From assembly GCA_963806155.1 (NCBI GenBank), contig CAWDXC010000018.1, positions 42,514 through 106,513 on the forward strand: a stretch of 64,000 nt of DNA, read 5' to 3'. The position numbers were made by a program, and so were the translations under genes. Each line of letters opens with the position of its first letter. Position 1 is the first letter of the stretch. This document shows, piece after piece, positions 3,615 to 39,868 of the stretch. Origin of the DNA: an uncultured Actinomycetes bacterium. GTDB lineage: Bacteria > Actinomycetota > Thermoleophilia > RBG-16-64-13. The notes under the pieces were generated by a model. The model saw only the letters and a list, made by a program, of their open reading frames with translations, searched no databases and was not told where the DNA came from.

Positions 3615-6512
3615 TTGCAAAAGTGGCGAGGGGAGATAAGAATAGAGCCAACCAATAAAAGGGGGGGTGGGCTCGTGTTCGGTCGGCTCTCTTTCGAAGG
3701 TCAGGACGGTGTCCAGGAGCGTGAGCTCGACCAGGCCGTCATCGGCTTGGGGCGCGCTCCCGAGAACGACGTGTACCTTGATCATGCGACCGTCTCCCGG
3801 TTCCACGCTCGTATCGTCTCCGACGCGGTCGGAAGCAGCATCATCGACCTGGGCAGCGGCAACGGTACGCGGGTCGACGGGGCAGAGCTCGACGTCAAGA
3901 TCGAGCAGCGGCTGGTCGACGGCTCTCTCATCCAGATAGGGCCTTTTTCCATTCGCTACCACCTGGGGGCGGTGGCGCCGACCGTCCTCGCCGCGGCGCC
4001 CGGCGCTCTGCCGGGCGTTCTACCTGAGCCCGCCGGGAAGCTGGGCCAGACCATAGTGATGGCCCCTCCCGCACCGCCGCGGCTGGTCGTCACCACTCCC
4101 CAAGGAGTCGCTGAGTTTCCTTTGACGTCCAGCTCGATGACTCTGGGGCGTGATCCGGCGAACGACATCACCGTGGATTCGGACGCCGTCTCCCGCCGCC
4201 ACGCACGCCTCGACAGGCGGGACTCGGGCTGGGATATCACCGATCTGGGCAGCACCAACGGACTTCGCTTCCAAGGCAAGCCTGTACAGAACGCACCATT
4301 GGCGGACGGCGAGGTGGTCTACATCGGGCGATCGGTCGCCTTGGAGTTCCGTGAGGCAGAGACCGCGCGCGCTGCGGGCGGCGCCCCGGCGGGCGCGGCT
4401 GCGCAGCGCGCTGAGACGTTCGACCTGCCCTCCAAAGGCGCCATGGTCCTGGGCCGCAGCGAGAACGCCGACGTCACCATCTTCCATCCCCAGGTGTCGC
4501 GGGCTCACGCCCAGATCGTGCGGCGCGGCTCTGAGCTCTATCTGGAAGACCTGGGCAGCGGCGGCGGGACCTACCTCAACGGCCAGATAATCAAGGAGCA
4601 CCTACTGGGCGAGGGGGACGTGGTCCGCATCGGCTCCAGCCGCATGGTGCTGGAGCAGGGACGGCTGCGGGTGGTCGATGAGGAGGGCAACCTGCGGATC
4701 GATGCTTTCCATCTCAGCCGGGTGGTCGGTAAAGGACTGCGCATCCTGCAGGATGTTTCGCTGTCGATCTACCCGCAGGAGTTCGTCGCCATCGTGGGAG
4801 CCAGCGGTTCGGGCAAGTCTACGCTCATGAATGCGCTCTGCGGCTTCCGTCCGGCGAACATGGGGACGGTGCTGCTCAACGGGACCGACCTCTATCGCAA
4901 TTTCAGCGCATACCGGAACGATCTGGGCTACGTGCCGCAGGACGACATCATCCACAGGGAACTGTCGGTCGTGCGGGCTCTCGACTACGCCGCCCAATTG
5001 CGGATGCCGGGGGACACCTCTGTCCAGGAGCGCCGGCAACGGGTGCAGGAGGTGCTCGAGGACCTCGATCTGCGCGTGACCGCGGACCGAGCGGTACGCC
5101 AACTGAGCGGCGGTCAGCGCAAGCGGGTGTCCATGGGGGTGGAGTTGCTCACCAAGCCCAGCCTGTTCTTCTTGGACGAGGCGACGTCCGGTCTCGATCC
5201 AGGCACCGAGTCGCAGATGATGAAGCTACTCCGCCGGTTGGCCGACCAGGGCCGCACCGTCGCCCTCGTCACGCACGCCACGAAGAACGTCATGACCTGT
5301 GACAAGGTCGTATTCATGGCTCGGGGAGGCCACCTGGCCTACTACGGACCGCCCGAGGACGCGCTCCGCTACTTCGGCGTGGACGATTTCGACGAGATCT
5401 ACACCCGGCTCGAGCAGGGCGACTCTAGAGAGTGGGAAGGCCGCTTCCGCGCCTCGCCGGGGTATCGCGAGAACGTCGAGAAGCGTCTCGCGGAGATGGA
5501 CCCGGTCGCCGCCATGCAGGGCGCCGGCGCCGCATACGGTGTGGCCGGTGCGTTCGCGGGCGCTCCCGCCGCGCCGGGAGTCCGCGCACCCGGCCAGCTC
5601 CCGCAGCGTGCCTCCGATCCGCCGCGGCGGGTGTCGAACTTCAAGCAGTTCCTGGTCCTCTCCAAGCGATATCTCGACACCATGTGGAGCGACAAGAAGA
5701 CGATGGCTTTGCTGTTCGGCATCGCCCCTGTCCTGGGAGCGCTCGACTTCATCATCTGGAAGCGCGACGTCTTCGATCTCGAGACCGGCAGCGCGACTCA
5801 GGCCGTCACCATGCTCTTCATGACCTCCATCATCACCATCCTGGTGGGGACCATCACCTCGGTGCGGGAGATCGTCAAGGAAGACGCGGTCTACCGACGG
5901 GAGCGCATGGTGGGGCTGCGGGTCATGCCTTACGTGGGTTCGAAGGTGGCTATAGGATTCATCTTCGCGGTGTGGAGCGCTCTAGTGCTCTTCTTGTTCC
6001 TCATAGCCGCGGTCGATTTCTCCCACCTGAGCTTTGCCGCGACCATGCAGCTTCTGGTGCCTCTCGTCCTGGGCACGTTCGCCGGGGTCATGTGGGGACT
6101 CCTGGTGTCGGCGGTGGCGCCCAGCGAGGATCGGGCCATGCTTCTCGTGATCCTGGTGCTGGTGCCGCAGTTCGTGTTCTCGGGAGGGATGATCCCGGTC
6201 TCGGACCTGGGAGTAGCCGGGAAGGTCATGGGATGGGTGACATCCACCCGCTGGGAGTTGGGCGCTCTGGTCACCTCGGCCCAGGTCGAGAGCGGTCCGG
6301 GGGAGGCCGCCGACCTCTCCGACGTCTATCTGCCCGGGATCGAGAGCCTGAAGACCCCGGGAGAGAAGCAGGCCTTGATCAGCACTCTCCACGACCAGTA
6401 TGGCGACATCTTCCACGTGGATCTGGCGCTCTATTGGGGAATGTCCATAGTCCTGGCCGCGATCCTGCTCGCCATCATCATCGCGCTGCAGAAGCGCAAG
6501 GACACCTTGTGA
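3615..6512 (+). CDS. ABC transporter with three N-terminal FHA domains, fused ATPase + ABC-2 permease (Rv1747-like)
   Basis: Three FHA cores (LGRAPENDV..SRFHARI; LGRDPANDI..SRRHARL; LGRSENADV..SRAHAQI each followed by DLGSxNGT); Walker A GASGSGKST, signature LSGGQRKRVSMGVELL, Walker B LFFLDEATSGLD, H-loop TVALVTHA; C-terminal ~6 TM ABC-2 domain. Likely true start is GTG at 3675 behind a GGGGGGGTGG Shine-Dalgarno. Confidence 0.85.
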   Translation: MQKWRGEIRIEPTNKRGGGLVFGRLSFEGQDGVQERELDQAVIGLGRAPENDVYLDHATVSRFHARIVSDAVGSSIIDLGSGNGTRVDGAELDVKIEQRLVDGSLIQIGPFSIRYHLGAVAPTVLAAAPGALPGVLPEPAGKLGQTIVMAPPAPPRLVVTTPQGVAEFPLTSSSMTLGRDPANDITVDSDAVSRRHARLDRRDSGWDITDLGSTNGLRFQGKPVQNAPLADGEVVYIGRSVALEFREAETARAAGGAPAGAAAQRAETFDLPSKGAMVLGRSENADVTIFHPQVSRAHAQIVRRGSELYLEDLGSGGGTYLNGQIIKEHLLGEGDVVRIGSSRMVLEQGRLRVVDEEGNLRIDAFHLSRVVGKGLRILQDVSLSIYPQEFVAIVGASGSGKSTLMNALCGFRPANMGTVLLNGTDLYRNFSAYRNDLGYVPQDDIIHRELSVVRALDYAAQLRMPGDTSVQERRQRVQEVLEDLDLRVTADRAVRQLSGGQRKRVSMGVELLTKPSLFFLDEATSGLDPGTESQMMKLLRRLADQGRTVALVTHATKNVMTCDKVVFMARGGHLAYYGPPEDALRYFGVDDFDEIYTRLEQGDSREWEGRFRASPGYRENVEKRLAEMDPVAAMQGAGAAYGVAGAFAGAPAAPGVRAPGQLPQRASDPPRRVSNFKQFLVLSKRYLDTMWSDKKTMALLFGIAPVLGALDFIIWKRDVFDLETGSATQAVTMLFMTSIITILVGTITSVREIVKEDAVYRRERMVGLRVMPYVGSKVAIGFIFAVWSALVLFLFLIAAVDFSHLSFAATMQLLVPLVLGTFAGVMWGLLVSAVAPSEDRAMLLVILVLVPQFVFSGGMIPVSDLGVAGKVMGWVTSTRWELGALVTSAQVESGPGEAADLSDVYLPGIESLKTPGEKQALISTLHDQYGDIFHVDLALYWGMSIVLAAILLAIIIALQKRKDTL

Positions 6513-6542: not shown

Positions 6543-8906
6543 ATGGACGATCTCGTAGGCAGGACTCTGGGCAGGTACCAGGTGACCGTCCTGGTGGGGC
6601 GGGGCGGGATGGCAACCGTGTACCGGGGAGCCGATCCGGTCCTCGACAGGACGGTGGCCATCAAGGTCATGCACAGCCACCTGGCTGCGGATCCCACCTT
6701 TGTCAGTCGTTTCCGCCACGAAGCGCAGGCGGTGGCCGCTCTCAGGCACCCCAACATCGTGAAGGTGTTCGACTTCGGCAACGAGGGCGAGTCGTACTAC
6801 ATGGTCATGGAGTTCATCGACGGCCCCACCTTGGCCGCCCTCATGCAGGCCGGAGCGGCCGCCAGCAGCACCAAAGCTCCAGGCCCTTCCGGAGAGCCGC
6901 ATAGTGGTCTCTCCACCGGAGAGATCCTGCGCCTGTTCCCGCCTCTCTGCTCGGCCATCGACTACGCCACCGCCCATGGCATGGTGCATCGCGATATCAA
7001 GCCGGCGAACATCCTCCTGACCGGCGAGGGAGAGCCCGTCCTCGCCGACTACGGCATCGCCAAGATCATGGGGGCCACCTCCTACACCGTCTCCGGGGTG
7101 GTGATGGGCTCGGCCCACTACATGTCGCCCGAGCAGGTACAGGGCTTCCCGGTGGACCACCGCACCGACATCTACTCCCTGGGGGTGGTGCTTTTTGAGG
7201 CCTTGGCCGGCCGGGTCCCCTACGACGCCGACACCACCGCGTCCATCCTCGCCCAGCATCTTTCAGCTCCTGTCCCTCCCGCCCGCTCCATCAACCCACA
7301 GTTGCCAGGAGAGATCCAAGCCGTGCTGGAACGGGCCCTGGCCAAAGAGCCGGAGAGGCGCTACCAGCGAGGCGGCGACCTGGCTGCCGCTCTGCAGACC
7401 GCCCTCGCACCCCTCCCGGCCACGATCTACGAGCCTATCCCCGGGCCCGGCGCGGCCCTCGCTCAAACGGTGGTCGAAGGTCCCGGTGTGCCGTACGCAG
7501 GGAGTGGGCGGCCGGCCGTCCCCACGGCGGCGACGGCCCCGCCCTTGACAGAAGCCCCTCCTCTGACGCAAGTCCCGCTCGTGACACCAGCTCCTCAGGC
7601 TGCACCCGGCTCCCCAGGGTCACCGGGCTTTTCTCCTACGAGGGTGGAGCGAGTGGCGCCCGAGGCACCGGCGCCGGTCACCTGGGAGCAGCCCGGCTTC
7701 GCGATCCCCTCGCGCGGGACGTCGCGTCGGTGGTGGCTGATCGCCGCCGCGGCCGTGGTGGTTATCGCCATCATCGCGGTGGTCGCCGTGCTGGCCACAC
7801 GTTCGGGCGAGCAGTCGACCGAATCCACCGTCACGACGACGGATGGCACCGTGGCCTCGGATTCCACCACCGGTCCCGAGGATCGCTCGACGACCACGAC
7901 GCTGGCGGTGGAAGTGGCCCAGTTGATCGAGGACGGGGACGCTCTTGTGGAGAGCGGGAAGCTCGATGAAGGCATCGCCATGTATGAGGAGGCGCTGCGT
8001 GAAAGCCCGGACAGCGACCTGGGCCGTACCCGGCTGGGCATCGCCTATTACCTCCATGGAGGCTACTCCACCGAGATGACGGCCCAACAGCTCGAGCTGG
8101 CCACCCAGAAGAACCCGGAAAGCGCCGAAGCCTGGGCCTTCTTGGGCCTGGCCTGGCTGAGCGCTGCCTACAGTCGTAAGTCGGGCGATCTCGCGTCGGC
8201 GGAAGAAGCCTGCCGGACGGCGGTCGAACTGGACCCGGAGAGCGGCCTGGCTCACGCGTCTCTCGGCCGGGTGCTGGCCGCTTCGGACCGGCAGGAGGAA
8301 GCCCTGACGGAGATGCAGACCGCTCTGGACCTTGACCCGCAGGATCCCTGGGTGCAGGAGTCCGCCGGCTGGATCAACGCCGTGCACGGAGACTGGGAGA
8401 CCGCCGTCCCCTACTACGAGACGGCCGTCACCTACAGACCGAACTGGGCCAGCTTCCTGAGTCTGCTGGGTGAATCTCTGTGGCAGACCGGGCACTACGA
8501 CGAGGCCCTCGAGTACTACGAGACCGAGCTGGATCTGGGGCAGGGGTACGAAGCCTCTGCCTACCAGGACATCGGGTTGACGCTATGGCACAAGGGGGAC
8601 TCCCCCGGAGCGATCGAGAGCCTGAAGGAGGCTCTGGCCCTCGACGAGAACGACGACTACACCCATTGGGCCCTCGGCGCTATCTGGGACGAGATGGAGG
8701 ACTACGAGGCTGCCTTGCCTCACCTGCAGCGTGCCGCGGCCCTGGTGCCGGACAACGCCGGTTATCAGGAATGGTTGGGGGACTGCCTCTACTACCTGGG
8801 GCGCTACGAAGAGGCCAGGGTGGCCATCGACAAGGCCTTGGAGCTCGAGCCCGACCGCGAGGGAGCGCAGCGACTCTCGGGATATCTGGCGGACGAGGGC
8901 TACTGA
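6543..8906 (+). CDS. Hanks-type Ser/Thr protein kinase with single TM and extracellular TPR repeats
   Basis: Kinase motifs GRGGMATVYRG, AIKV, HRDIKPANILL, DYGIAK, SPEQ; Pro-rich linker; TM WWLIAAAAVVVIAIIAVVAVLA; C-terminal ~350 aa of TPR-like repeats (AYYLHGGY, AWAFLGLAW, LGDCLYYLGRYEEA). Confidence 0.85.
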   Translation: MDDLVGRTLGRYQVTVLVGRGGMATVYRGADPVLDRTVAIKVMHSHLAADPTFVSRFRHEAQAVAALRHPNIVKVFDFGNEGESYYMVMEFIDGPTLAALMQAGAAASSTKAPGPSGEPHSGLSTGEILRLFPPLCSAIDYATAHGMVHRDIKPANILLTGEGEPVLADYGIAKIMGATSYTVSGVVMGSAHYMSPEQVQGFPVDHRTDIYSLGVVLFEALAGRVPYDADTTASILAQHLSAPVPPARSINPQLPGEIQAVLERALAKEPERRYQRGGDLAAALQTALAPLPATIYEPIPGPGAALAQTVVEGPGVPYAGSGRPAVPTAATAPPLTEAPPLTQVPLVTPAPQAAPGSPGSPGFSPTRVERVAPEAPAPVTWEQPGFAIPSRGTSRRWWLIAAAAVVVIAIIAVVAVLATRSGEQSTESTVTTTDGTVASDSTTGPEDRSTTTTLAVEVAQLIEDGDALVESGKLDEGIAMYEEALRESPDSDLGRTRLGIAYYLHGGYSTEMTAQQLELATQKNPESAEAWAFLGLAWLSAAYSRKSGDLASAEEACRTAVELDPESGLAHASLGRVLAASDRQEEALTEMQTALDLDPQDPWVQESAGWINAVHGDWETAVPYYETAVTYRPNWASFLSLLGESLWQTGHYDEALEYYETELDLGQGYEASAYQDIGLTLWHKGDSPGAIESLKEALALDENDDYTHWALGAIWDEMEDYEAALPHLQRAAALVPDNAGYQEWLGDCLYYLGRYEEARVAIDKALELEPDREGAQRLSGYLADEGY

Positions 8907-10717
8907 CCCGCGGGGGGTCGCCCGGCCGGGGGCTGACCGGCCAGGGGTTGGCCGGCGGCTGTCGCCATCCGGTCGACGAAGGACTGGTAGGTCTCCATCA
9001 TGGCGTCGAACGGCTTGTCGAACTCGATCGTCGTGAAGTGCCCGGCGGGCCGGCAACGGACCAGGTCGAGGGGGAGCAGGCCATCCCAGGAGTAAGCCAG
9101 CTGAGGGAAGGCCCCTCGTCCCACCACTCGGATCGCCGTCACTCCCTGAGCTCCACAGGCGGTGGCAAAATCGAGGAAGCGACGGCTCAAGCCCTCTCCG
9201 GGCCTGCCTACCGCGACGCTCAGGGACTGTAGAGAGCGAGAGGGGAGCAGGCCGAGGTAGTCGCGGGGCACTTCCATCAGGTCGTCCACCGGACGTACGA
9301 TCACCACCCGGCCCTGACAGTCGTTTACGAGGGTATTGAACATGCCCGGACTCAGGCTGGGACGGCCGGGGGCCCTCTCGTCCAGTATCACCACGAACGG
9401 GTCGTCGTAGTCCGAGAGGACTTGAAGGCCGGTGGGCACACCACTCGAGCTTTCTAGGGCCTTGTACCGGTCGAAGGTGTCGTGCAGCTGGCGGAGCGGC
9501 CAGGCGCCGCGCGGCAGTACCTCGGACAGCCTGCGAAGCCGACCGGCAAGAAGGCCGGCGTACTCGAGCGGGTCGGTATCTCCATGTGCGCTTCTCTCAA
9601 CGAAGTGGATGCGGGAAGAGAGACACCCGTTCTGATCCCAGAAGACAGAATCGAGACCGGCCAGCAGAGCGACGGCGGCGACGAGCCCGCCCTCCCACGA
9701 ATAGTGAGCGCCCTCGCGACCGAGCTCGAAGACCTCCCGGCCGATGGCCGTGAAGCTGACTTTGTGCCCATGGGGATGGAAACGGACGTGGGACCGGCCC
9801 GAAGGGCCGCGCTCCCGCGGGATCTGACCGGCGATGCGGGCGATCGTGTCGTCTCCGGCGGCCGCGATCACGAGGTCCGACCGGCCGAGAAGCCGGCTCT
9901 GGAGGGCCGCATCGTCGTAGTCCCAGACCAAGACGGCGACAGTGGAGGCGAGTTCCTCGTCCGCTTCTTCCAGCGCCTGGAGGACGATCGGGCTGAATAT
10001 GGGCTCGCGCCGCGAGTTACGCACCAGTACCACCGGCGGCGCTCCACCACAGAGGGTGGTCGAGAGGGCCAAGAGGACGATGATAAGGGCGGTCCCCGGC
10101 ACGTTCCCAGCGCCGTACCCGGTGACGAACTCCGGTGCCTCCGGTGCACCGAACAGCGATATCCCGGAATACAGGGGCAGTCGGCCGGCCAACCGGGAGA
10201 TCCCCGCCGCGCGAGAGGGGAAGAAACGGAGGCGACCTGGCAACCCGGGCAACGGCTGCCAGCGAGCCTTCGTCGCTTTCCTGGGGTCGAGGGCGAACGC
10301 GCGGGTCATCTGCTCCAGATCCCATATCTCCGGGGCCGCCATCACCGAGCCGATCATGGCCGGGCTGTAGCCCGTGTAGCCGGGGATCGTTTCGAGCTCT
10401 CGACGGGCGGGAGCCTTCGGATCGGCGAGTCCTCGGGCGACCACTTTCATGGCCACGTTCAGGCGGTCCCAGAACTCCGGGCCGCGGGGAGCCCGGCCGC
10501 GAGCGGCGGCCAGTCCGTCGAGCAAGACCGTCCAGTCGTTCTCGGTGAGACGTGGCCACCGGGTGGTGACGGCTCCCGGCGTCTCCGCTTCGCGCTCGCG
10601 TCCGCACTCGCGGCCGGCAGCGAAACTCGACTCCACCCAGGTTCGTCGTCCGCCGACGATCGCGCGACGCATGGCCTTCGGGAGCCAGAACCCGTCGATC
10701 ACACCTGGGCTGCGCAT
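8900..10717 (-). CDS. LuxC-family acyl-CoA reductase (start uncertain)
   Basis: C-terminal 450 aa of ORF 8900..10987 resemble LuxC acyl-CoA reductase (…GNVPGTALIIV…, …WDQNGCLSSRIHFVE…); the first ~90 aa of the ORF are Arg-rich GC-artefact; candidate starts M91 (10717) or M106 (10672); 3' end overlaps the convergent kinase gene by 7 nt. Confidence 0.55.
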   Translation of the reverse strand: MRSPGVIDGFWLPKAMRRAIVGGRRTWVESSFAAGRECGREREAETPGAVTTRWPRLTENDWTVLLDGLAAARGRAPRGPEFWDRLNVAMKVVARGLADPKAPARRELETIPGYTGYSPAMIGSVMAAPEIWDLEQMTRAFALDPRKATKARWQPLPGLPGRLRFFPSRAAGISRLAGRLPLYSGISLFGAPEAPEFVTGYGAGNVPGTALIIVLLALSTTLCGGAPPVVLVRNSRREPIFSPIVLQALEEADEELASTVAVLVWDYDDAALQSRLLGRSDLVIAAAGDDTIARIAGQIPRERGPSGRSHVRFHPHGHKVSFTAIGREVFELGREGAHYSWEGGLVAAVALLAGLDSVFWDQNGCLSSRIHFVERSAHGDTDPLEYAGLLAGRLRRLSEVLPRGAWPLRQLHDTFDRYKALESSSGVPTGLQVLSDYDDPFVVILDERAPGRPSLSPGMFNTLVNDCQGRVVIVRPVDDLMEVPRDYLGLLPSRSLQSLSVAVGRPGEGLSRRFLDFATACGAQGVTAIRVVGRGAFPQLAYSWDGLLPLDLVRCRPAGHFTTIEFDKPFDAMMETYQSFVDRMATAAGQPLAGQPPAGRPPAGQ

Positions 10718-12087
10718 CCCGCCTCCCCCAACAGGTCCACTCGCTGAATGGAGCCTTTCTCCAGGTAGGCACCGGTGTCGCCGCAGGGGCAGAGCGTTTC
10801 CCCCCGCCCATCGACGAGGGTGACCCGGTCCGCCGTGCGGAAGAAGCCTGGGAACAGGTCGCCGCTCCCGAAAGGATCGAAGAAGGCCAGGAGCCCGGTC
10901 GCTCTGTCTCCCGCTCGGGTCTCGCCGTCGTCGTCCAGAGCCACCGCGTGGACCCAGGGCGGGACGTGATAGTTGCCGGCGGAGCACTGCATCGCCGCCC
11001 AGTTGGCCTCGGCCATGCCATAGACATCTCGTAGGGGCAATGCGCCTCCGTCCGCCGGCCGGAAGGCGCGCTCCAGGTCCTGCCTGATCTCGTCGGGCGA
11101 GAGACCATAGGCCTCCTTCATGCCTCCGCCGGTGCCGAGCAGGCTACCCGGAGCCAGAGAGATCGCACGGTTGGCGCGTAACAGAGCCAGGGCGACTCCG
11201 TGCAGCTGGGTGAGACTGCCGAACAGGAGCACCTTCTCGCTGCGCGCCGCGGCCCGGTCAAGCCGCTTGAGGGCCACCTTGATGGCGCGGGGGTCCACGT
11301 AGTGGGCCTGGAGGGTGTTGATGGCGGGGTGCCAGACCCGCTTTTCCACCCAGCCGCGCGGGCCGGAACGGTAGGCCCGGCCGGCGCGGATGCGGACCTG
11401 GTCGGGGTGGGCGGGGAACGGTATGGCGAAATGCACTCGGTCGGAGGTGAGCCCTACCCGCCGGACACTGAACCGGGCCATGCGGGCCATGGCGATGCGG
11501 CTCCGCTTGGGCATCATGAAGATCGCACGGTGGTCGGCCTTCATGCCGAGGTACCGCTGGAAAGACAGGTAGAAGCTCTCCACGTTGAGGTCGGTGCTCC
11601 TGGCGTCTCGGGCGATGATGGTGGCTCTGCCCGAAGTGCCGCTCGACGTCAGCAGTTCCAGCGCGTAGTCGGAGAAGAGGTACTCGATGGCCTGCAGCAG
11701 CGCCTCGAGAGACCGGTAGCTCGACCCGAGCCGGCGGAGACGGTCGGCGGGAAGATCGACCGAGAGCTGGTCTATGAGCCATTCCCCAAAGTCGCGGGCT
11801 TTATCCTGGGGGAACGGCGTCCCCAACAGGTCGATGTAGGACTTGAAGGTCTGGGACGTGGGCCGCAGCAGCCGGGACAGGTCGTCCACCGCAGCCCGGG
11901 GCCCCACTCCCCGGGCGGCCACTGCGTTGCGATAGGCCGTGTTACGCGCATAGTGCCAGGAGTGCGTGGCCAAGATGCCACGCAACACCTTCTTCTCGCG
12001 CTCGGCCTCGGGAATGCTCCAGAAGCCGGCCAGCTCGTCAGTCGTTTGGGCGCCGGGTTCCACAGTGTCGTGCGCTCCTCCTGTCAC
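10699..12087 (-). CDS. LuxE-family acyl-protein synthetase (adenylate-forming)
   Basis: 462 aa; AMP-binding P-loop LLTSSGTSGRATI, overall LuxE-like architecture, C-terminal CPCGDTGAYL motif; positioned between hotdog thioesterase and LuxC homologue on the same strand. Confidence 0.7.
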   Translation of the reverse strand: MTGGAHDTVEPGAQTTDELAGFWSIPEAEREKKVLRGILATHSWHYARNTAYRNAVAARGVGPRAAVDDLSRLLRPTSQTFKSYIDLLGTPFPQDKARDFGEWLIDQLSVDLPADRLRRLGSSYRSLEALLQAIEYLFSDYALELLTSSGTSGRATIIARDARSTDLNVESFYLSFQRYLGMKADHRAIFMMPKRSRIAMARMARFSVRRVGLTSDRVHFAIPFPAHPDQVRIRAGRAYRSGPRGWVEKRVWHPAINTLQAHYVDPRAIKVALKRLDRAAARSEKVLLFGSLTQLHGVALALLRANRAISLAPGSLLGTGGGMKEAYGLSPDEIRQDLERAFRPADGGALPLRDVYGMAEANWAAMQCSAGNYHVPPWVHAVALDDDGETRAGDRATGLLAFFDPFGSGDLFPGFFRTADRVTLVDGRGETLCPCGDTGAYLEKGSIQRVDLLGEAGCAAQV

Positions 12088-12111
12088 GGTCAGGTATCGT
12101 TTCGAGGGGCC

Positions 12112-12579
12112 TTACTCCGCGCTCGCCATACGCCGGCCGCGCTTAGGAACGGGCGGAAGCTCGCGCCCTTCCAAGGCGAGGATGGCGCTTCGGTACTCCG
12201 CGCGGAGCGGGACTCGCCGGCTCGTCACGTAGTCGTACGAGACCACGAGGGTCTCCCCGTCGGCCACCACTCTGTCCAGCGCTCGGCTGTGCGCGTCGTA
12301 CTCCATGAGGAAACGGTCCTCTCCGAGGGCCGACACCCGCGCTCCCAGCGAGAGGGTGTCCGGGTAGTTCACCGGCGCCCGGTAGCGGCAGCTGTTCGTC
12401 CCGATGATGAAGCCGTAGTCCCACAGGTCCAACCGGGGCGGGATCACCCCGAGACGCTCCAGATAGGAGATACGCACGATCTCGAAATACTCGAAGTAGA
12501 TGGTGTTGTTGACGTGCCCCAGGGCGTCCATGTCCGCCCAGCGCACCTCTACCTCGACGACCACAGGGTAGTGGTTCAA
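12112..12579 (-). CDS. acyl-CoA thioesterase, hotdog fold (YbgC/4HBT-like)
   Basis: 155 aa; VRWADMDALGHVNNTIYFEYFE catalytic-region motif of 4HBT thioesterases; TTG start with AAGGAGAGG Shine-Dalgarno. Confidence 0.75.
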   Translation of the reverse strand: MNHYPVVVEVEVRWADMDALGHVNNTIYFEYFEIVRISYLERLGVIPPRLDLWDYGFIIGTNSCRYRAPVNYPDTLSLGARVSALGEDRFLMEYDAHSRALDRVVADGETLVVSYDYVTSRRVPLRAEYRSAILALEGRELPPVPKRGRRMASAE

Positions 12580-12752
12580 AAGGACCTCTCCTTGTCGGGC
12601 ATCCTACAGCGGCATTGTAACGCCCGCGCGGCAGACCTGCCTCATTGATTTCTTGATGATATCATAGTAATATTGCATAGCCGGGTGGATCCCGGTACGG
12701 TTCTTGAACTGGTTCGACTCTGCCCCAGGGTGGGCGGTGGACAGGAGGAGAG
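12580..12752. promoter_or_regulatory. AT-rich divergent intergenic control region with perfect palindrome ATGATATCAT (12656-12665)
   Basis: 173-bp region of markedly lower GC between divergent thioesterase-luxE-luxC operon and SPFH gene; contains ttgatttcttgatgatatcatagtaatattgcatag. Confidence 0.35.
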
Positions 12753-13784
12753 ATGGACGGACAGCAGGTTTCGCTGAATCACGAGCGAGAGGCCAAAGCG
12801 ATGAGCGGCTGGGGCATGCTCGCCGCGGTGATCGTCATCTTCGTCGTCGGTATCGCCCTGTTGGTGGTGGCCGCTGTGTATGGGGACGACGAGGGTCTCA
12901 GCACCGGGGAGATCTGGGCCTTGGTGGGCCCGGGTATCGTTCTGCTGGCTCTGGGCTCCTTCTTGGCTCCCGGCTTTTTCACGCTGGAGCCTAACGAGAC
13001 CCGGGTCCTGGTGCTGTTTGGCGCCTACAAGGGCACCGTTCGCCAGGGCGGATTTTGCTGGGCCAACCCCTTCTACTCGAACGGCCCGACGGCCAAAGCT
13101 ACCACCGACGCACGCGGAGGCGAGGGAGCCGGGGGGACCTCGGCGACGGCCGGCAAGAAGGGTCAGCCCTCCCGCACGGTCAAGAAGTTCCCTCGCTATA
13201 AGGTCTCGGTGCGGGCCCGCACTTTGAACGGGCCGAAGCTCAAGGTCAACGATCGCAGGGGCAACCCGGTGGAGATCGCGACGGTAGTGGTCTGGAGGGT
13301 CAACGACACCGCCCAGGCCGTGTTCGACGTCGACGACTTCGAGCTCTACGTCGAGACCCAGAGCGAGACGGCGCTACGCCATCTGGCCAGCTCCTACGCC
13401 TACGATCACGGCGAGGAGCACGAGATCACCTTGAGGAGCAATGTGGACGAGGTGTCGCAGGCTCTCAAGGACGAGTTGGGGCAGAGACTTGCCCGAGCAG
13501 GCGTGTTGGTCGAAGAGGCCCGCCTCACCCACCTGGCCTACGCGCCCGAGATCGCTCAGGCGATGCTCCGCCGCCAGCAGGCCGAGGCGATCATCGACGC
13601 CCGCCAGAAGATCGTGCACGGGGCCGTGAGCATGGTCGACATGGCCCTCCGCGAGCTGTCAGAAAAGAGTGTGATAGAGCTCGATGAGGAGCGCAAAGCG
13701 GCCATGATCAGCAACCTGATGGTGGTACTCTGTGGCGAATCCGAGGTGCATCCGGTCGTGAACACCGGCACCCTCTACACCTAG
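12753..13784 (+). CDS. SPFH/band-7 (stomatin/prohibitin-like) membrane protein
   Basis: N-terminal TM ([21 protein letters not shown]), SPFH core (…[17 protein letters not shown]…[17 protein letters not shown]…), C-terminal coiled-coil ([21 protein letters not shown]); AGGAGGAG Shine-Dalgarno. Confidence 0.8.
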
Positions 13785-13821: not shown

Positions 13822-14019
13822 GTGGCTGAGCGCAAGCAGTTCCTGCTCCGCATAGATCCTCGGCTCTGGTCGGAGATGGAGGCGTGGGCTGCCGACGAGC
13901 TGCGCAGTGTGAACGGCCAGATCGAGTACGTGCTCCGAGACGCCGTGAGAAGGCGGAAGGGCTCACAAGAGAAAGGATCCGGGGATGAGAGATCCCAGGC
14001 TGGACAAGCTGGCCGATAA
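13822..14019 (+). CDS. Arc-family ribbon-helix-helix DNA-binding protein
   Basis: 65 aa; [38 protein letters not shown] matches the Arc-type RHH pattern (FxLRLPxxLxxxLxxxAxxxxRSLNAEIxxxL). Confidence 0.5.
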
Positions 14020-29982: not shown

Positions 29983-31824
29983 CTACCTCCGCGGGATCAC
30001 CGGCAGGACGATGTGCGACGGGTGGTCCTTGTCATGATAGATAGTGTCCCGCCCCACTTTGAGGCCGTAGTAATGACCGCCGAAGTCGAAGGCGTTCGAG
30101 TCGTAGCAGGCCAGGTCCACCCTGATGCGGTGCCCTTTTGGGAAGCAGCAGGACGTGGCCCAGACCTCGACCTCGAACTTGTAGATCTTATTGGGCTCGA
30201 GAGGTCTCGGCTCGTCGTGCCGGTAGTAGGGCCGGTACGACAGGCTCCTGGCCTCATCCTTGGTGCAGGCGTGCGACGCTTTGAGCCAGCCGCGGGTCAG
30301 CATGCGGCCGCGCGGGGCCATGCCCGGGATCTGGTCGTCATCGGGTACCTGGTCGGTAAGGCGCACGAAGAAGTCGGTATCGGTCTGGTCCGACGAAGCC
30401 CAGAGGTTGAGGACGATGCTGCCGATCACCTCCACGTCCTCGGCAAGAGGCTCACCGGTGAAGGTGAGGATCTTCCGTACCGGGTTCGGGACCCCGTCCT
30501 CCATGACGGCCGTGCCCAGGCCGGAGAAGTGGGACCAATCGGGGTCGGGATAGTCGTAGCTGGTCGATGCCGGGGTCACCGTGGCCCTTGTCTCTCCGGC
30601 GGCCATGATCGTCTCGGGTGCCCAGGCCGTCCGTGGTCTGCCGGCAGCGTCGGCCGCCCCGTCCGCGGGGACCGGCGGCGGACCGGCCGCGGCCGCCACG
30701 GTCGGCGCCTCCCACGTGAGAGCCCCGTCGTTCAGCGATCCCACCGCGCCGCTCGGTCCCGGCGCAAGGTAGAGGTTCCGATATTGGGTGTCCGGGATGG
30801 GCCAGTCCTTCTCCGGCCGGTAGACCTCGCGGTTGCGCACGAACACGGTCACCGGGTCTTCCTCCATGAAACCGGTGTCGTTGCCCTTCAGCCAGTGGTC
30901 GTACCAGCGCAGATGCAGCAGCTGCATCTCCCGAGAGTTGAAGATGGCCATCTCGTCGCCCTCGAAGTCCCCATGGCAGAGGAGCAGCTTCTTGGGGGTC
31001 GTCACCGTCTCGTAGCCCCGGATGTTACCGCGCAGGTGGATGCCCACCTTGTGCAGGATGCCGATGCTGTAGACAGGGACCTGGATCTTGGTGAAGTCCG
31101 GGTTTCTCACCTTCCAGAAGTCGTCGCAGGTGGGGTGGTGCATGACGTTCCAGGGCAGGTCCCATCTGCCCACACCTGGTGATGGCCCGTACTTGCCCAG
31201 CCGATAGTTGGCCCGGATCTCAGCCGTCCACCAGTTGGCCGGGAAGCCCAGGCCCATGATGCCGCCGTGGAAGGCCACGTCCCGATACATGTCCGCCCCC
31301 GCGTCGAAGGGAGCGATACAGCACAAGTGGGCTGGTTGCATGGCGGCGGTGAACCACTGCACCCAGGCGAGCAGCGACTCTCCGATCATCCCCACCTTGC
31401 CGGTGCACCAGGGCTGGACCCCGATCCACTCCACCATGTCGTAGAAGTCGTTCTGCTCTTCCTGGCTGAAGAGCTGGAACTCGCCCTCCGCCGACTTGCC
31501 GCTGCCCCGTATGTCCTGGTGCACGTATGCGTAGCCTCGGGACACGAACCACTCGATGTCGTTGGTCTCGCGGAAGTGATAGATGGGCCACTGGGGCAGG
31601 TACTCGAGGTCCTTCTGGTAGGCGCTGGTGGCGTAGAGGGCCGGGAACTGCCCGGGGGCGTCGGGGCGGAACACGTCACAGGCCACCCGCACTCCGTCAC
31701 GCATGGTGACCATGACGTCTCTTTCCACGACCATCTTGTACTGAGGCCTACTCAGCTTCTCCGCCGGGAAGCCTTCGGGGAGCAGGGTGGACATGATCTC
31801 GGGCTTGAGGATCTTGGTGTACAT
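29983..31824 (-). CDS. CocE/NonD-family hydrolase (S15 X-Pro dipeptidyl-peptidase-like alpha/beta hydrolase), paralogue 1
   Basis: 613 aa; N-terminal alpha/beta-hydrolase part with GESLLAW catalytic-Ser context and C-terminal jelly-roll domain typical of CocE/NonD; about 60-65% identical to the ORF at 33851..35599. Confidence 0.8.
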   Translation of the reverse strand: MYTKILKPEIMSTLLPEGFPAEKLSRPQYKMVVERDVMVTMRDGVRVACDVFRPDAPGQFPALYATSAYQKDLEYLPQWPIYHFRETNDIEWFVSRGYAYVHQDIRGSGKSAEGEFQLFSQEEQNDFYDMVEWIGVQPWCTGKVGMIGESLLAWVQWFTAAMQPAHLCCIAPFDAGADMYRDVAFHGGIMGLGFPANWWTAEIRANYRLGKYGPSPGVGRWDLPWNVMHHPTCDDFWKVRNPDFTKIQVPVYSIGILHKVGIHLRGNIRGYETVTTPKKLLLCHGDFEGDEMAIFNSREMQLLHLRWYDHWLKGNDTGFMEEDPVTVFVRNREVYRPEKDWPIPDTQYRNLYLAPGPSGAVGSLNDGALTWEAPTVAAAAGPPPVPADGAADAAGRPRTAWAPETIMAAGETRATVTPASTSYDYPDPDWSHFSGLGTAVMEDGVPNPVRKILTFTGEPLAEDVEVIGSIVLNLWASSDQTDTDFFVRLTDQVPDDDQIPGMAPRGRMLTRGWLKASHACTKDEARSLSYRPYYRHDEPRPLEPNKIYKFEVEVWATSCCFPKGHRIRVDLACYDSNAFDFGGHYYGLKVGRDTIYHDKDHPSHIVLPVIPRR

Positions 31825-31886
31825 CAGCTACCTCCTTGCGCACGGGCGACGGGCCGCAGGGGCCCCGGCGCTCCCGTTTGTGGACC

Positions 31887-33050
31887 TCAGCTAGAGAGCG
31901 TGAATCCCAATCCGGCCGGATTGTCTTCGTAGATCCTGGTCTGCTCGTCTTCCGATAGTCCAAGCCCGTCGAGGAACTCCCCGCTCTCCACCGTGGTCTC
32001 GTACGGGTAGTCGGTGCCCAGCATGATCCGTTCTATCCCCAGGGCGGCCCGAGTGCACTCGAAGGCGGCGGCCAGGAAATTGCCGCTGGTGGTGACGTAC
32101 ATGTTCTCCAGCAGGTACTCGCTCGGCCGCTTTCTTATCGCGGGCATGGAGCCGGACCCTTTGGGCACGTGGTACTGGAGGAACGAGCGGTCCACCCGCT
32201 TGAGCAGGAAGGGGAGGGCTTCGCCGTAGTGGCCGAGAATGATCGTCAGTCTTGGGAAGGCGTCGAACACCCCGCTCAGGATGAGTCGCATCATCACGGT
32301 CGAGGTCTCGATACCGAAGCCGAACCCGGGTCCGGCCAGGGCCAGTCCGTAGTCGGTCAACTGGCGGATGATCGGGAACGTCGGGTGCAGGTAGATGGGC
32401 ACGCCCAACCCCTCGGCCTTGGCCAGGATGGGCCAATAGCGCTTGTGGTCAAGGTAGGAGTCACCGAAGTTGGAGTGGGTGTTCCAGCCTTTGAACCCCA
32501 ACTCCTTGACGGCGCGCTCCAGCTCTTTGGCCGCCTCTTCGGGCTCGCGGGGTCCCAGGGTGGCGAATCCCAGATACCGGTCGGGGTGGCGGTCGATGGC
32601 CTCGGCCAGCTTGTCGTTGGCGTCCTTGGACAGGGCCGTCGCCACCGGGGGCTCCAACTGCTCCAATGCCGGCGCGGTGTGCGAGAGCACCGCGACGTCG
32701 ATGCCGATGGCATCCATCGCCTCCAGCCGCATGCCGTCGAGGTCCAGGAGTCGGTCGACCAGAGGGTCGCCGAACGGCTGCCAGTAGCCGGCCGAATGGT
32801 AGACGTGGCGTTCTCCGGTCTCCTTGTCGTCCACGAAACGGGGATAGCCTGGGTTTTTGTACAGGGCGCCTACATAGGCATCGGTGGCGAAGTGGTTCTC
32901 GGTGTCGATCTTCTTCACGCCATAGACCCCCACGTTTCGGTCGGCTACTTCAGCGATGTCCGCTCTGAACAGGTTCATCTTGCCGACCCGCGGGTCGCTC
33001 GCGCCCGTGTCGACCCGCGGGTCCAGAAAGGGGATGCACGCTCCCGGCAT
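31887..33050 (-). CDS. amidohydrolase-2 family (ACMSD/LigW-like decarboxylase or hydratase), paralogue 1
   Basis: …KKIDTENHFATDAY…, …HPDRYLGFATLGP…, …GVPIYLHP…, …ILGHYGE…, …MLGTDYPYE… (metal-binding His/Asp positions); start may be M25 (MNLFRADIA, about 32978). Confidence 0.75.
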   Translation of the reverse strand: MPGACIPFLDPRVDTGASDPRVGKMNLFRADIAEVADRNVGVYGVKKIDTENHFATDAYVGALYKNPGYPRFVDDKETGERHVYHSAGYWQPFGDPLVDRLLDLDGMRLEAMDAIGIDVAVLSHTAPALEQLEPPVATALSKDANDKLAEAIDRHPDRYLGFATLGPREPEEAAKELERAVKELGFKGWNTHSNFGDSYLDHKRYWPILAKAEGLGVPIYLHPTFPIIRQLTDYGLALAGPGFGFGIETSTVMMRLILSGVFDAFPRLTIILGHYGEALPFLLKRVDRSFLQYHVPKGSGSMPAIRKRPSEYLLENMYVTTSGNFLAAAFECTRAALGIERIMLGTDYPYETTVESGEFLDGLGLSEDEQTRIYEDNPAGLGFTLSS

Positions 33051-33114
33051 CAGCCCGCGCGGCTGATATCAGTAAGCGCCCACTTTGCAGACAATAGCGG
33101 GACGCGTCGCTTTG

Positions 33115-33678
33115 TCAAGCCTGCCCGGGACGACGGGTCACCGAGATGCTCTCCAGGAGGCGCTCCAGCATGCGTTGGGCCCGGTCGGCGGTGACGTATT
33201 CACTGAGCCCCATGAGATAGGATACGTCCTGGGCCCAGTAGACGCCTACGAGCTCCCAGGCCAGTTGCTCGGTGTCTGTGTCCGGCCGAATGACCCCCTG
33301 GACCTTTCCCTCCTCGAGAATGGCCGCGAGGGCGTGGATGGATGAGCGCTCTCTTTCGGCCAGGGCATCTCGGAGCCCGACCTCGGGCGGAGCGGCCACA
33401 AACTCAAACAGAGGGTAGACGTAGCCTTCTATCTCTGAGGAGACGACGGTGGAATGCAATCTTCCGATCGCCCGCAGCCGGTCGAGCGCGTTCCCTCGGT
33501 CGGCCGCGTGGATGATCTTGAACACGCGCTCGTACACAAGGTCGAGTGCGGCAAGCAGCATCTCGGTCCGGCTGGAGAAATGTCTATACAAGGTGGCCTC
33601 GGACACCCCTGCCGCCTCGGCTATCCGGGACGTGGTGGTTCCCTGGACGCCGTATTTGGCCACGACGCCCATGGTCAC
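33115..33678 (-). CDS. TetR-family transcriptional regulator
   Basis: HTH …GTTTSRIAEAAGVSEATLYRHFSSR…; conserved helix-1 sequence (AERKRQIVEV) lies upstream of the first ATG/GTG with an in-frame TAG 27 codons upstream, so the true start is unclear. Confidence 0.7.
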   Translation of the reverse strand: MTMGVVAKYGVQGTTTSRIAEAAGVSEATLYRHFSSRTEMLLAALDLVYERVFKIIHAADRGNALDRLRAIGRLHSTVVSSEIEGYVYPLFEFVAAPPEVGLRDALAERERSSIHALAAILEEGKVQGVIRPDTDTEQLAWELVGVYWAQDVSYLMGLSEYVTADRAQRMLERLLESISVTRRPGQA

Positions 33679-33850
33679 CTCGACGATCTGCCTCTTGCGC
33701 TCGGCGGCCTTGAGCCTGCCGGCCTTGCCCGGTCTTACGGCGTCCGTGGCATCTCCCTTCCAGTAGTTGCTTGCATCCTAGCTCATAAGGCCTGCGCTAC
33801 GCGAGTGGCTTCACGGCTGACGGCCGCCGACGTGCTTGCCCCGGGAGGCG

Positions 33851-35599
33851 CTAGGCCGGGATCACCGGCAGGATGATGTGCGACGGGTGGTCCTTGTCGT
33901 GGTAGTAGGTGTCTGTCCCCACCTTGATGCCGTAGTAGTGGCCGCCGAAGTCCAGGGCGGGCGAGTCGCCGCAGGCGACATCGATGCGGATGCGGTGTCC
34001 CTTCTTGAACACGTTGCAGGTCGGCCAGATCTCTATCTCGTACTTGTAGATCGTGCCCGGCTCGATGGGCTTGGGGTCGTCGTGCAGGTAGTAGGGGCGA
34101 TAAGGCTTCGAGAGTTCCTCGCTCTTGGTGAAGGCGTGCGAAGCCTTCAGCCAGCCCCGGGTCAGCGTGAGCCCGTTCGGCGGCATCCCGGGGATCTGCT
34201 CAGAATCGGGGGCCTGATCGACCAGACGACAGAAGAAGTCGGTGTTCTTCTGGTCTGACGACGCATACAGCACCAGCACGATGCTGCCCGAGACCTCCAG
34301 ATCTTCTTCCAGCGGGGCCGTGGTGAACGTCGGGATGCGGCGCTGCCCGTATACAACGCCGTTCTCCTCGATGACGGCAGTACCGCCACCCGAGAAATGG
34401 GTCCAATCCTGGTCGGGGTACGAGTATTTGAACGAGCTTTCGGCTTCAGCCGGGGGATCCCAGGAGAGCCGACCGTCGTTCAGCGAGTCCACCGCCCCGC
34501 TGGGTCCGGGATGGAGATAGAGCCTGCGATAGTCGGTCCGGGCCAGCGGCCACTCGCTTTCCGGCCGGTACACGTTGGCGCCTCTGACGAAGATGGTCAC
34601 CGGCGGCTCCTGCATAAGGCCGGTGTCGTTGCCCTTCAACCAGTGGTCGTACCAGCGCAGCATCAAGAGCTGCATCTGCGGGGAGTTGTAGATGGCCATC
34701 TCGTCGCCGTCGAGAACGCCGTGGATGAGCATCATCTTCTTGGGGGTAGTGACCTGTTCGTATCCGCGGACCACTCCGCGCAAGTGGAGCCCCACCTTGT
34801 GGAGAGCGCCCACCACGAACACCGGGCACTCGATCTTGGAGAAGTCGGGGTTGCGCAGCTTCCAGAAGTCGTCGTACGTAGGGTGGTTCATGACGTTCCA
34901 GACCATGTCCCACTTGCCCATCTCGGGGTTGGGAGGCACGAAGCCCGGGTCACGGGCCGCCCATCCCAACCGGTAGTGGCCACGGATCTCCCACATGTGC
35001 CAAGCGGTGGGGAAGCCGACCGCCATCATGCCTCCATGCCAGGCCACGTCCCGGTAGAGATCGGCGCCTGCGTCCCAGGGAAGGATGCAGGTCAGGTGAG
35101 GCGGCTGCTGGACGGCCGCGAACCACTGCGACCAGGCGAGCAGCGACTCGCCCAGCATGCCCACCTTGCCGGTACACCAGGCCTGGGCTGCGATCCACTC
35201 GACCAGGTCGTACAGGTCGGTCTGCATCTCGCGACCAAAGAGGTCCCATTGCCCGATGGGTGAATGGCCGGTGCCCCTCGAGTCCGAGTGCACGAAGATG
35301 TAACCGCGGGAGACGAAGTATTCGATGTCGTTGGTCTCGCGCATGTGGAAGATCGGGAGCAGAGGCAGGTCGTCCAGGTCCTTCTGATAGGAGTCCGCCG
35401 CTAGCAGGGCGGGGAAGGGACCGGGCGCGTCGGGCCGGTAGATGTTCAGCGCCACCTGCACGCCGTCGCGCATGGTGACCATGATGTCTCTCTCCACGAC
35501 CATCTTGTACTCGGGCTTGCTGAGCTCGTCGGCCGGGAAGTCCTTGGGGAGCATGGTGGACATGATCTCCGGCCTGAGCGTCTTGGAATACACGGGCAA
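33851..35599 (-). CDS. CocE/NonD-family hydrolase, paralogue 2
   Basis: 582 aa, collinear with the 29983..31824 product (GESLLAWSQWFAA, …KGHRIRIDVACGDS…HYYGIKVG…DKDHPSHIILPVIP). Confidence 0.8.
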   Translation of the reverse strand: MPVYSKTLRPEIMSTMLPKDFPADELSKPEYKMVVERDIMVTMRDGVQVALNIYRPDAPGPFPALLAADSYQKDLDDLPLLPIFHMRETNDIEYFVSRGYIFVHSDSRGTGHSPIGQWDLFGREMQTDLYDLVEWIAAQAWCTGKVGMLGESLLAWSQWFAAVQQPPHLTCILPWDAGADLYRDVAWHGGMMAVGFPTAWHMWEIRGHYRLGWAARDPGFVPPNPEMGKWDMVWNVMNHPTYDDFWKLRNPDFSKIECPVFVVGALHKVGLHLRGVVRGYEQVTTPKKMMLIHGVLDGDEMAIYNSPQMQLLMLRWYDHWLKGNDTGLMQEPPVTIFVRGANVYRPESEWPLARTDYRRLYLHPGPSGAVDSLNDGRLSWDPPAEAESSFKYSYPDQDWTHFSGGGTAVIEENGVVYGQRRIPTFTTAPLEEDLEVSGSIVLVLYASSDQKNTDFFCRLVDQAPDSEQIPGMPPNGLTLTRGWLKASHAFTKSEELSKPYRPYYLHDDPKPIEPGTIYKYEIEIWPTCNVFKKGHRIRIDVACGDSPALDFGGHYYGIKVGTDTYYHDKDHPSHIILPVIPA

Positions 35600-39866: not shown

Positions 39867-39868
39867 GG

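Follow-up and report, generated by a model that had tools for sequence, protein, structure and literature searches.

We analyzed a 64,000-nucleotide stretch of the genome of an uncultured soil Actinomycetes bacterium (assembly GCA_963806155.1, contig CAWDXC010000018.1, positions 42,514 to 106,513), hereafter called the window, which carries three tightly packed open reading frames (ORFs) on its minus strand (12579-12112, 12087-10699, and 10987-8900). These encode a hotdog-fold thioesterase of 155 amino acids, a LuxE-like protein of 462, and a LuxC-like protein of at most 695. We favor, with moderate confidence, the view that the three genes form an operon for a Lux-type carboxylic-acid reductase of two components, which the thioesterase feeds. 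The LuxE-LuxC pair likely converts a carboxylic acid, probably a fatty acid, to the aldehyde at the expense of ATP and NAD(P)H. A nonluminous operon of thioesterase, LuxE, and LuxC had been proposed earlier from the sequence, without database searches, and this original prediction holds at its core, with profiles, catalytic residues, folds, and gene adjacency in agreement. The ORF coordinates and Pfam matches likewise confirm that the three genes are co-directional and closely spaced.

Family assignment and catalytic residues

Both members of the pair scored above the Pfam gathering cut-offs of their families, the check by which the original prediction was to stand or fall. The LuxC-like protein matched LuxC (PF05893) with 102.1 bits (cut-off 21, E = 4e-29) over model positions 95-396 of 401. 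The LuxE-like protein matched LuxE (PF04443) with 36.4 bits (cut-off 24.9, E = 3.6e-9), the alignment covering model positions 198-384 only. It also matched the LuxE chain 7xc6_E in the PDB (E = 3e-7), with TSSGTSGR aligned to FTSSGTSG. The P-loop SSGTSGR, already noted as a LuxE feature, was thus recovered in this alignment.

The residues expected of an acyl-protein synthetase are strongly conserved. Among 33 aligned LuxE-like homologues (alignment A2), TSSGTSG and CxCG were invariant, as were glycines G318 and G321 of GGGxK and Cys458, which lies in the likewise invariant C-terminal sequence EAGCAAQV; K324 and R449 were present in at least 90% of the sequences. A GC motif was found within the final eight residues of all 120 LuxE-like cluster representatives, so that the tail cysteine is always kept. 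In the LuxC-LuxE complex of Photobacterium phosphoreum, whose structure was solved by cryo-EM, LuxE consists of an adenylating core with Lys238 and Arg355 and carries Cys364 on a ~20-residue C-terminal motif found in place of the ANL C-subdomain, and LuxC carries Cys296 on an aldehyde dehydrogenase (ALDH) fold (PMC9157457). GGGMK of the LuxE-like protein, which contains K324, aligns with GGGWK of LuxE, and the R449-x8-C458 spacing is that of Arg355 and Cys364 in the P. phosphoreum protein (PMC9157457). By motif and spacing, K324 and R449 appear to be the equivalents of Lys238 and Arg355.

We examined the architecture of the LuxE-like protein in an AlphaFold2 model (predicted local distance difference test [pLDDT] score 87). 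The core ends near residue 425 and ~37 residues follow, the tail being of low pLDDT. PaaK1 and other PaaK-family ligases were the best fold matches (E ~1e-11, template modeling score ~0.55). On sequence and model together, the protein is predicted to carry its acyl-accepting cysteine on a short C-terminal tail and to lack the CoA-binding C-terminal subdomain of ANL enzymes.

Since searches of the PDB with the LuxC-like protein failed, both as a single sequence, which gave one spurious flagellin match only, and as a profile (see below), homology to LuxC is shown by Pfam, by fold, and by an intermediate from Bacillaceae. Its AlphaFold2 model (pLDDT 84, predicted template modeling score 0.87) had LuxC as the top PDB match in Foldseek (7xc6_A, E = 3.1e-17), with ALDHs six orders of magnitude weaker (~1e-11). 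The Bacillaceae homologue, from locus L044, aligns to 7xc6_A with E = 1.5e-18, which places its FDQQGC on YDQQAC and its GNVP on GNVP. The window protein contains GAGNVPG and WDQNGC, the latter corresponding to FDQQGC of L044 and ending in Cys365. As the cysteine of YDQQAC (chain index 285 of 7xc6_A) is Cys296 in the published numbering (PMC9157457), Cys365 is the predicted equivalent of Cys296, by transitive sequence alignment through L044 rather than by direct superposition. AAAGDxTI and GNVP occupy the expected cofactor and oxyanion positions, and the protein is predicted to carry out NADPH-dependent reduction of acyl thioesters. The catalytic cysteine is retained in 103 of 120 LuxC-like cluster representatives.

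The thioesterase matched Pfam 4HBT_2 (PF13279; 76 bits, cut-off 25.5, E = 3.5e-21) and the PDB thioesterases 5byu and 2cye (E = 4e-18 to 2e-14), and scored under the cut-off of the YbgC/FadM subfamily model TIGR00051 (44.7 bits, cut-off 68.7). Its Asp18, within DMDALGHVNN, is invariant in 13 orthologues. 5byu has Asp at this position and the near-identical 5dio has Ala (DMAALGHVNN); from this pair and from YbgC/4HBT enzymology, we infer that Asp18 is catalytic.

These assignments suggest a reaction sequence. The thioesterase, acting through Asp18, would hydrolyze acyl-CoA or an acyl thioester of acyl carrier protein (ACP) to the free acid. The LuxE-like protein would bind ATP by its TSSGTSG loop, form acyl-AMP with the aid of Lys324 and Arg449 and, judging from its residues and architecture, pass the acyl group to Cys458 on its flexible C-terminal tail. 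From this tail the group would move to Cys365 of the LuxC-like protein, which has an ALDH fold and on which NAD(P)H would, by homology, reduce the thioester and release the aldehyde. The translational coupling of the LuxE and LuxC genes (see below) fits a 1:1 complex of their products.

As the original prediction had it, luxAB are missing. Among the ~50 called genes of the window, Pfam detected neither a luciferase-like monooxygenase (PF00296) nor a LuxD-type acyltransferase; two short stretches with no called gene (25.8-27.0 and 53.1-54.6 kb) and a handful of ORFs that had no match lie outside this result. A luxA/luxB/luxD gene cluster did not recur in 48 related loci. Since there is no luciferase, the aldehyde would serve another route, for example the synthesis of alcohols, waxes, lipids, or the envelope.

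Conservation of the pair and alternatives to a thioesterase-fed reductase

Database searches at E ≤ 1e-5 returned 382 LuxC-like and 494 LuxE-like homologues. These were metagenomic, with Anaerolineae and Chloroflexota as named sources. We compared their loci using one genome per species, which gave 38 loci of the long type found in the window. The closest (55-83% identity) came from metagenome-assembled genomes (MAGs) labeled Actinomycetes, Actinomycetota, Gaiellales, or Thermoleophilia; others came from Anaerolineae and Chloroflexota (41-55% identity) and one from a Spirochaetales MAG. A profile search over 1.84 billion representatives yielded 1074 matches at E ≤ 0.001, only 62 of them at E ≤ 1e-30. 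Full-length long-type proteins scored at least 440 bits and ordinary LuxC-family proteins (450-500 amino acids) at most 147 bits, the latter matching mostly at profile positions ~186-560 and in a few cases from ~32-82 onward. Because the score drops so sharply and so few matches lie at E ≤ 1e-30, the long-type LuxC-like clade is discrete and small.

LuxE lay directly 5′ of LuxC in 48 of 48 clustered loci, so the comparison of neighborhoods that the original prediction had called for came out in its favor. In most of the 30 loci for which both end motifs were located, LuxC starts between about -19 and +56 nt from the LuxE stop; the widest spacings, in L013 and L010, put the conserved LuxC motif 113 and 152 nt past that stop. 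The translationally coupled LuxE-LuxC pair is the only part of the locus conserved in all loci, and the thioesterase is present in one clade only.

In 15 of ~40 long-type loci, a thioesterase orthologue (53-82% identity) immediately precedes LuxE on the same strand. All 15 belong to the Actinomycetota-like clade, reaching down to ~55% LuxC identity. The thioesterase keeps its place despite inserted genes (L025 and L041) and a changed divergent neighbor (L041). On metagenome contigs, LuxE-LuxC came next in three of the four testable cases when the thioesterase was at least 50% identical, and never when it was below 50%.

Several findings weigh against a thioesterase-fed Lux-type reductase. Scores against the NCBIfam equivalog models of the authentic proteins were 41.1 bits for LuxE (NF052244, cut-off 550) and 17.2 bits for LuxC (NF052251, cut-off 750). 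Because these lie far under the equivalog cut-offs, the two proteins are by sequence distant members of the LuxC and LuxE families and not orthologues of the luminescence enzymes. Identity between the LuxC-like protein and LuxC is ~14%, and the profile of 33 LuxC-like homologues had zero matches among PDB sequences. An hhalign comparison of the LuxE-like family with LuxE of Bacillaceae aligned the central core only (family columns 272-409). Pfam searches limited to the first 200 and 262 residues gave zero matches, which holds for the N-terminal halves of both proteins; for this reason we ascribe to these long halves divergence and scattered insertions, and claim no separate extra domain. No aldehyde-consuming enzyme was obvious beside the operon or recurrent in related loci. 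About 9 of the 120 LuxC-like representatives have Ser, Gly, Arg, or Ala in place of the catalytic cysteine. Lastly, every Anaerolineae-type locus and some loci of Actinomycetota have the pair but no thioesterase, and at L055 a 53%-identical thioesterase shares the M29 peptidase and MFS neighbors but has no LuxE-LuxC.

These last two observations also support a different view of the locus, which we consider doubtful but the best placed of the alternatives. LuxE-LuxC would be a self-contained module, and the thioesterase an unrelated YbgC/FadM-like housekeeping neighbor or a proofreading hydrolase, a role akin to the editing described for TabJ. The Band7-M29-MFS neighborhood is syntenic throughout the thioesterase-bearing clade, so that co-occurrence of the thioesterase may reflect relatedness. 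This view does not readily explain why the thioesterase is always immediately upstream on the same strand, at a gap of 24-48 nt, or why it stays when genes are inserted and the divergent neighbor changes; the arrangement also parallels the logic of LuxD-LuxE-LuxC. A thioesterase that stands in for LuxD, as originally proposed, is therefore plausible by analogy: conservation alongside the pair in 15 loci speaks for it, whereas restriction to one clade and the thioesterase without a pair at L055 speak against it.

For a thioesterase-fed reductase, the most likely substrates would be medium- or long-chain fatty acids. The original claim of a fatty aldehyde product stands as regards a Lux-type acid reductase; that the aldehyde is fatty we infer, the equivalog scores being far too low to carry that part. 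An unlikely alternative keeps the chemistry and changes the substrate to a short, branched, aromatic, or functionalized carboxylate, with the aldehyde entering a specialized small-molecule pathway. Structural neighbors of the LuxE-like protein act on phenylacetate, hydroxybenzoates, salicylate, and 2-hydroxyisobutyrate, aryl-CoA thioesterases occur among 4HBT-type hotdog enzymes, and the low equivalog scores are compatible with such a change. The gene context of the Bacillaceae pairs, described below, suggests a small soluble substrate, but at 26-29% identity it need not transfer to the window. All characterized LuxE and LuxC enzymes use C14 fatty acids, however, the best PDB fold match of the reductase is LuxC, and genes of aromatic or amino-acid pathways are not conserved beside the pair.

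The LuxC-like proteins that lack the catalytic cysteine imply that not every lineage can use the protein for reduction. They comprise L025:8064-9590 and P0017, P0020, P0023, P0025, P0027, P0028, P0046, P0066, and P0099. The HGHKVSF motif is degenerate in at least L025 and P0099, and the partner LuxE-like protein retains its carrier cysteine in every case. Such proteins may be pseudo-enzymes or a sign of altered function. A broader proposal, which we offer as improbable in its entirety, is that the long pair constitutes a two-component reductase of carboxylates that only Thermoleophilia and Anaerolineae possess, supplying aldehyde or alcohol to an unrecognized membrane-lipid or envelope pathway under the control of Hanks-type kinases, with the cysteine-less forms as non-catalytic derivatives.

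Least probable is that no aldehyde is made: the self-charged LuxE-like protein would pass its acyl group to lipid, glycan, or protein by way of the LuxC-like protein, which would serve as acceptor, transferase, or scaffold, or else the pair would have a regulatory role linked to Ser/Thr kinases. Such roles would fit the cysteine-less forms with their intact LuxE-like partners, the Hanks-type kinases of differing sensor domains that adjoin the pair in several distant loci, and the suspicion that luxC and luxE homologues in Aeromonas flagellin glycosylation islands add an acyl group to the glycan. Against them, the window protein and 103 of 120 relatives keep the cysteine, GNVP, and AAAGD at the cofactor site, acceptor-related genes are not conserved nearby, and the cysteine-less forms may be mere decaying copies.

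Some related loci have features of their own. Distant LuxE-LuxC pairs were found in cultured alkaliphilic Bacillaceae (Halalkalibacter, Alkalihalobacillus, and Evansella; L043-L049, with L044:6265-12404). At these seven loci (26-29% identity), the genes that follow the pair encode an ABC transporter, whose binding protein is of the NMT1/THI5 type, and a short-chain dehydrogenase/reductase (SDR). We regard them as a different nonluminous Lux-like cluster, and one that is open to experiment. An SDR is also a neighbor in L027, and is unique to that locus. In L015, L018, L027, L030, L034, and L035, LuxE is directly preceded on its own strand by a ketol-acid reductoisomerase-like (KARI, ilvC-like) gene, ~1.5-2.5 kb upstream of LuxC (~3.7-4.8 kb in L035, with a kinase between). 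A divergent phosphoribosyltransferase gene usually stands beside it in Anaerolineae-type loci. We considered KARI and the phosphoribosyltransferase as functional partners of the pair (six to seven Anaerolineae loci) and judged the arrangement to be, more probably, lineage synteny.

Gene starts, promoters, and neighboring genes

The coordinates of the operon and its elements are collected in Table 1. GC content is 65% in the window, and GC at third codon positions in the operon (0.77-0.88) is typical of the window's real genes. The gap between the thioesterase stop and the LuxE-like start is 24 nt, or 48 nt if the LuxE-like gene starts at GTG 12063. This GTG is probably the true start, giving a protein of 454 amino acids as in database protein P0121. 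The thioesterase is identical to a 155-residue protein in a public collection, and its TTG start is preceded by an invariant GGAG.

Table 1. Coordinates of the operon, its predicted functional residues, and the upstream elements in the window
Feature	Position	Strand	Basis
Hotdog-fold (4HBT/YbgC-like) thioesterase, 155 aa, TTG start	12112..12579	-	Pfam 4HBT_2, PDB relatives
LuxE-type acyl-protein synthetase, maximal ORF of 462 aa	10699..12087	-	Pfam LuxE, 7xc6_E, alignment A2
Codons of phosphate-binding loop TSSGTSGR, residues 147-154 of the 462-aa ORF	11626..11649	-	Invariant in 33/33 aligned homologues
Codon of Cys458, predicted acyl-carrying cysteine of the LuxE-like tail	10714..10716	-	Tail-motif conservation, Arg spacing
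LuxC-type acyl-thioester reductase (ALDH fold), 605 aa, ATG 10717	8900..10717	-	Pfam LuxC, fold match
Codon of Cys365, predicted catalytic cysteine, motif FWDQNGCLSSR	9623..9625	-	Alignment via L044 to 7xc6_A
TACAAT, likely -10 element of the operon promoter	12614..12619	-	Conservation across 9 intergenic regions
AT-rich block AATATT-n5-GATATC-n7-AATCAA	12645..12674	.	Conservation, uniqueness in the window

Three starts (M91, M106, and M180 of the long ORF) had been put forward for the LuxC-like gene. M91 is the one that stands: the product is identical over its full length to database protein P0001 (605 amino acids, 100% identity and coverage), and GGGAGG at 10727-10722 lies 4 nt 5′ of the ATG. 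We rejected M106 and M180 because both would remove the conserved DGFWLP motif, which begins at residue 8 counted from ATG 10717. The start is possibly instead a GTG 15 nt (five codons) downstream of M91, whose GTGA overlaps the LuxE stop. With M91 as the start, the LuxE-like and LuxC-like reading frames overlap by 19 nt, and the ATG overlaps the codon for the LuxE-like carrier cysteine.

At the other end of the operon, the LuxC-like stop codon (8900-8902) falls within the convergent kinase ORF (6543-8906, plus strand), and the 7-nt overlap described in the original prediction is correct. The final ~17 residues of the LuxC-like protein (8900-8960, minus strand) form a low-complexity tail, AGQPLAGQPPAGRPPAGQ, that is modeled as disordered (pLDDT <50) and is variable or missing among homologues. 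The codons for this tail extend into the kinase gene at its 3′ end.

A 173-nt intergenic region separates the thioesterase from a divergent Band7/SPFH gene (12753-13784). Across nine loci, three blocks are invariant and the remainder has diverged: AATAYT-n5-GATATC-n7-AATCAA, TACAAT, and GGAG, the last being the Shine-Dalgarno sequence (12591-12588 in the window). The AT-rich block is present once in the window and in none of 100 shuffles; each of 13 related loci contains its core a single time, in every case just 5′ of the thioesterase. Read on the plus strand, the block is TTGATT-17 nt-TAATAT, a promoter-like sequence directed at the Band7/SPFH gene, and its distance to TACAAT differs among loci. 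For these two reasons, it is likely the Band7 promoter, with TACAAT, ~50 nt closer to the operon, likely the operon's own -10 element. The original idea of an AT-rich divergent promoter driving the operon is thus right as to the existence and conservation of the block and fits less well as to the gene served. A scan of 8.5-13.1 kb for the sigma-70 consensus found no promoter, and these assignments are drawn from conservation only. Over the same interval, no terminator was predicted between the thioesterase and LuxE-like genes, and two weak terminator-like sites on the plus strand within the Band7 gene were at chance level. Rfam, run on the whole window, had no match of any kind and thus revealed neither a riboswitch nor a leader RNA.

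The GATATC core of the AT-rich block is, in the window, a perfect palindrome, ATGATATCAT, within the spacer of the putative Band7 promoter. Plain promoters do not usually have a conserved spacer, and this one suggests a candidate operator. A 65-residue ORF (13822-14019, plus strand) between the Band7 and M29 peptidase genes had sub-threshold ribbon-helix-helix/ParD-like matches (E = 0.005-0.08), and at the corresponding position in L004 a 65-residue gene is called, a likeness in position and length only. The product could be a small DNA-binding protein; we found no link to the palindrome.

Hanks-type Ser/Thr kinase genes lie directly beside the pair, in variable orientation, in several distant loci: besides the window, these are L017:4299-6596, L039:2618-5356, L035:4976-6562, L038:1551-2762, and L026:3265-5346. 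The C-terminal module is TPR in the window and SH3 with FGE-sulfatase, PD40, FHA, or FlaA-like elsewhere. In the window, a triple-FHA ABC transporter (3615-6512, plus strand) comes before the kinase. By a rough estimate, kinase-pair adjacency is commoner than kinase density predicts, and it may represent a regulatory link to the pair.

Farther along the window, a region on the minus strand (29983-35599 and 37284-40145) may be a catabolic island; it is unrelated to the Lux-like operon. In it, two paralogous S15 X-Pro dipeptidyl-peptidase-like genes flank an amidohydrolase and a TetR regulator. Near them are a TAT-signal binding protein and a large molybdopterin oxidoreductase whose N-terminal domain is pyrogallol-hydroxytransferase-like. 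The PADLOC defense models had no match.

Comparison with known systems

Pfam and NCBI already assign these proteins to their families ("acyl-CoA reductase"), and nonluminous luxC/luxE pairs have been annotated before. The divergence of the clade and the makeup of the operon aside, a specialist would find no surprise here. A literature search on LuxC-like and LuxE-like proteins in these phyla returned nothing specific. To our knowledge, LuxC/LuxE is one of few natural routes from free acid to aldehyde and has been studied only in luminous Gammaproteobacteria. Here a divergent branch of this two-enzyme system is kept in abundant uncultured lineages of soil, sediment, and sludge that make no light. 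If characterized, it could reveal how these bacteria use aldehydes, for example for alcohols, waxes, unusual lipids, or signals, and could provide compact parts adapted to high GC for aldehyde and alcohol bioproduction.

The window pair resembles P. phosphoreum LuxC-LuxE (7XC6) in the adjacency of the genes and in the TSSGTSG loop, the Lys/Arg pair, and the carrier-cysteine tail of one protein and the DQxxC and GNVP motifs of the other. It differs in that the proteins are only ~14% identical, are ~90-120 residues longer, and have divergent N-terminal halves. The window operon has no luxA/B, luxD, or luxG, its order is E then C with overlapping frames, and its host belongs to an uncultured Actinomycetota/Chloroflexota lineage rather than to the Gammaproteobacteria. 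LuxD, a myristoyl-ACP thioesterase/acyltransferase, is like the window thioesterase in being encoded with LuxE and LuxC and in being able to free an acid from a thioester. LuxD is an alpha/beta-hydrolase with a serine nucleophile; the window enzyme is an unrelated, Asp-dependent hotdog protein of the 4HBT/YbgC type and is tied to the pair in one clade only.

Other systems share parts of the proposed chemistry. Flagellin glycosylation islands of Aeromonas and enterobacteria contain luxE and luxC homologues without luciferase, and their function has been the subject of speculation (PMC7874193, PMC4875605). Those pairs are accompanied by ACP, ketoacyl-ACP reductase, AMP-ligase, and glycosyltransferase genes, none of which are at the window locus, and the window clade is a separate, longer subfamily. 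We also considered the mycobacterial mel2 "lux-like" locus as a relative and rejected it because, according to its authors, a LuxE homologue is missing. A haloarchaeal "alternative FAR" was set aside as well, since LuxC does not figure in the paper on it. PaaK-family ligases (PaaK1 2Y27, BT_0428, NatL2, and AjiA1), the closest folds to the LuxE-like protein, share its N-terminal adenylating core and P-loop. They have a C-terminal subdomain and transfer the acyl group to CoA, whereas the LuxE-like protein ends ~37 residues past the core, in the invariant EAGCAAQV.

TabE, of a Streptomyces tambjamine pathway, is an ALDH-like acyl-thioester reductase with an active-site cysteine (bioRxiv 10.1101/2025.08.11.669332). 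Reduction of a thioester to an aldehyde on a cysteine is common to TabE and the proposed reductase, but TabE uses acyl-ACP or acyl-CoA with no LuxE partner. Carboxylic acid reductases resemble the proposed system in their overall reaction, the ATP- and NAD(P)H-dependent conversion of an acid to an aldehyde. They are single A-PCP-R polypeptides that use phosphopantetheine instead of a protein cysteine tail.

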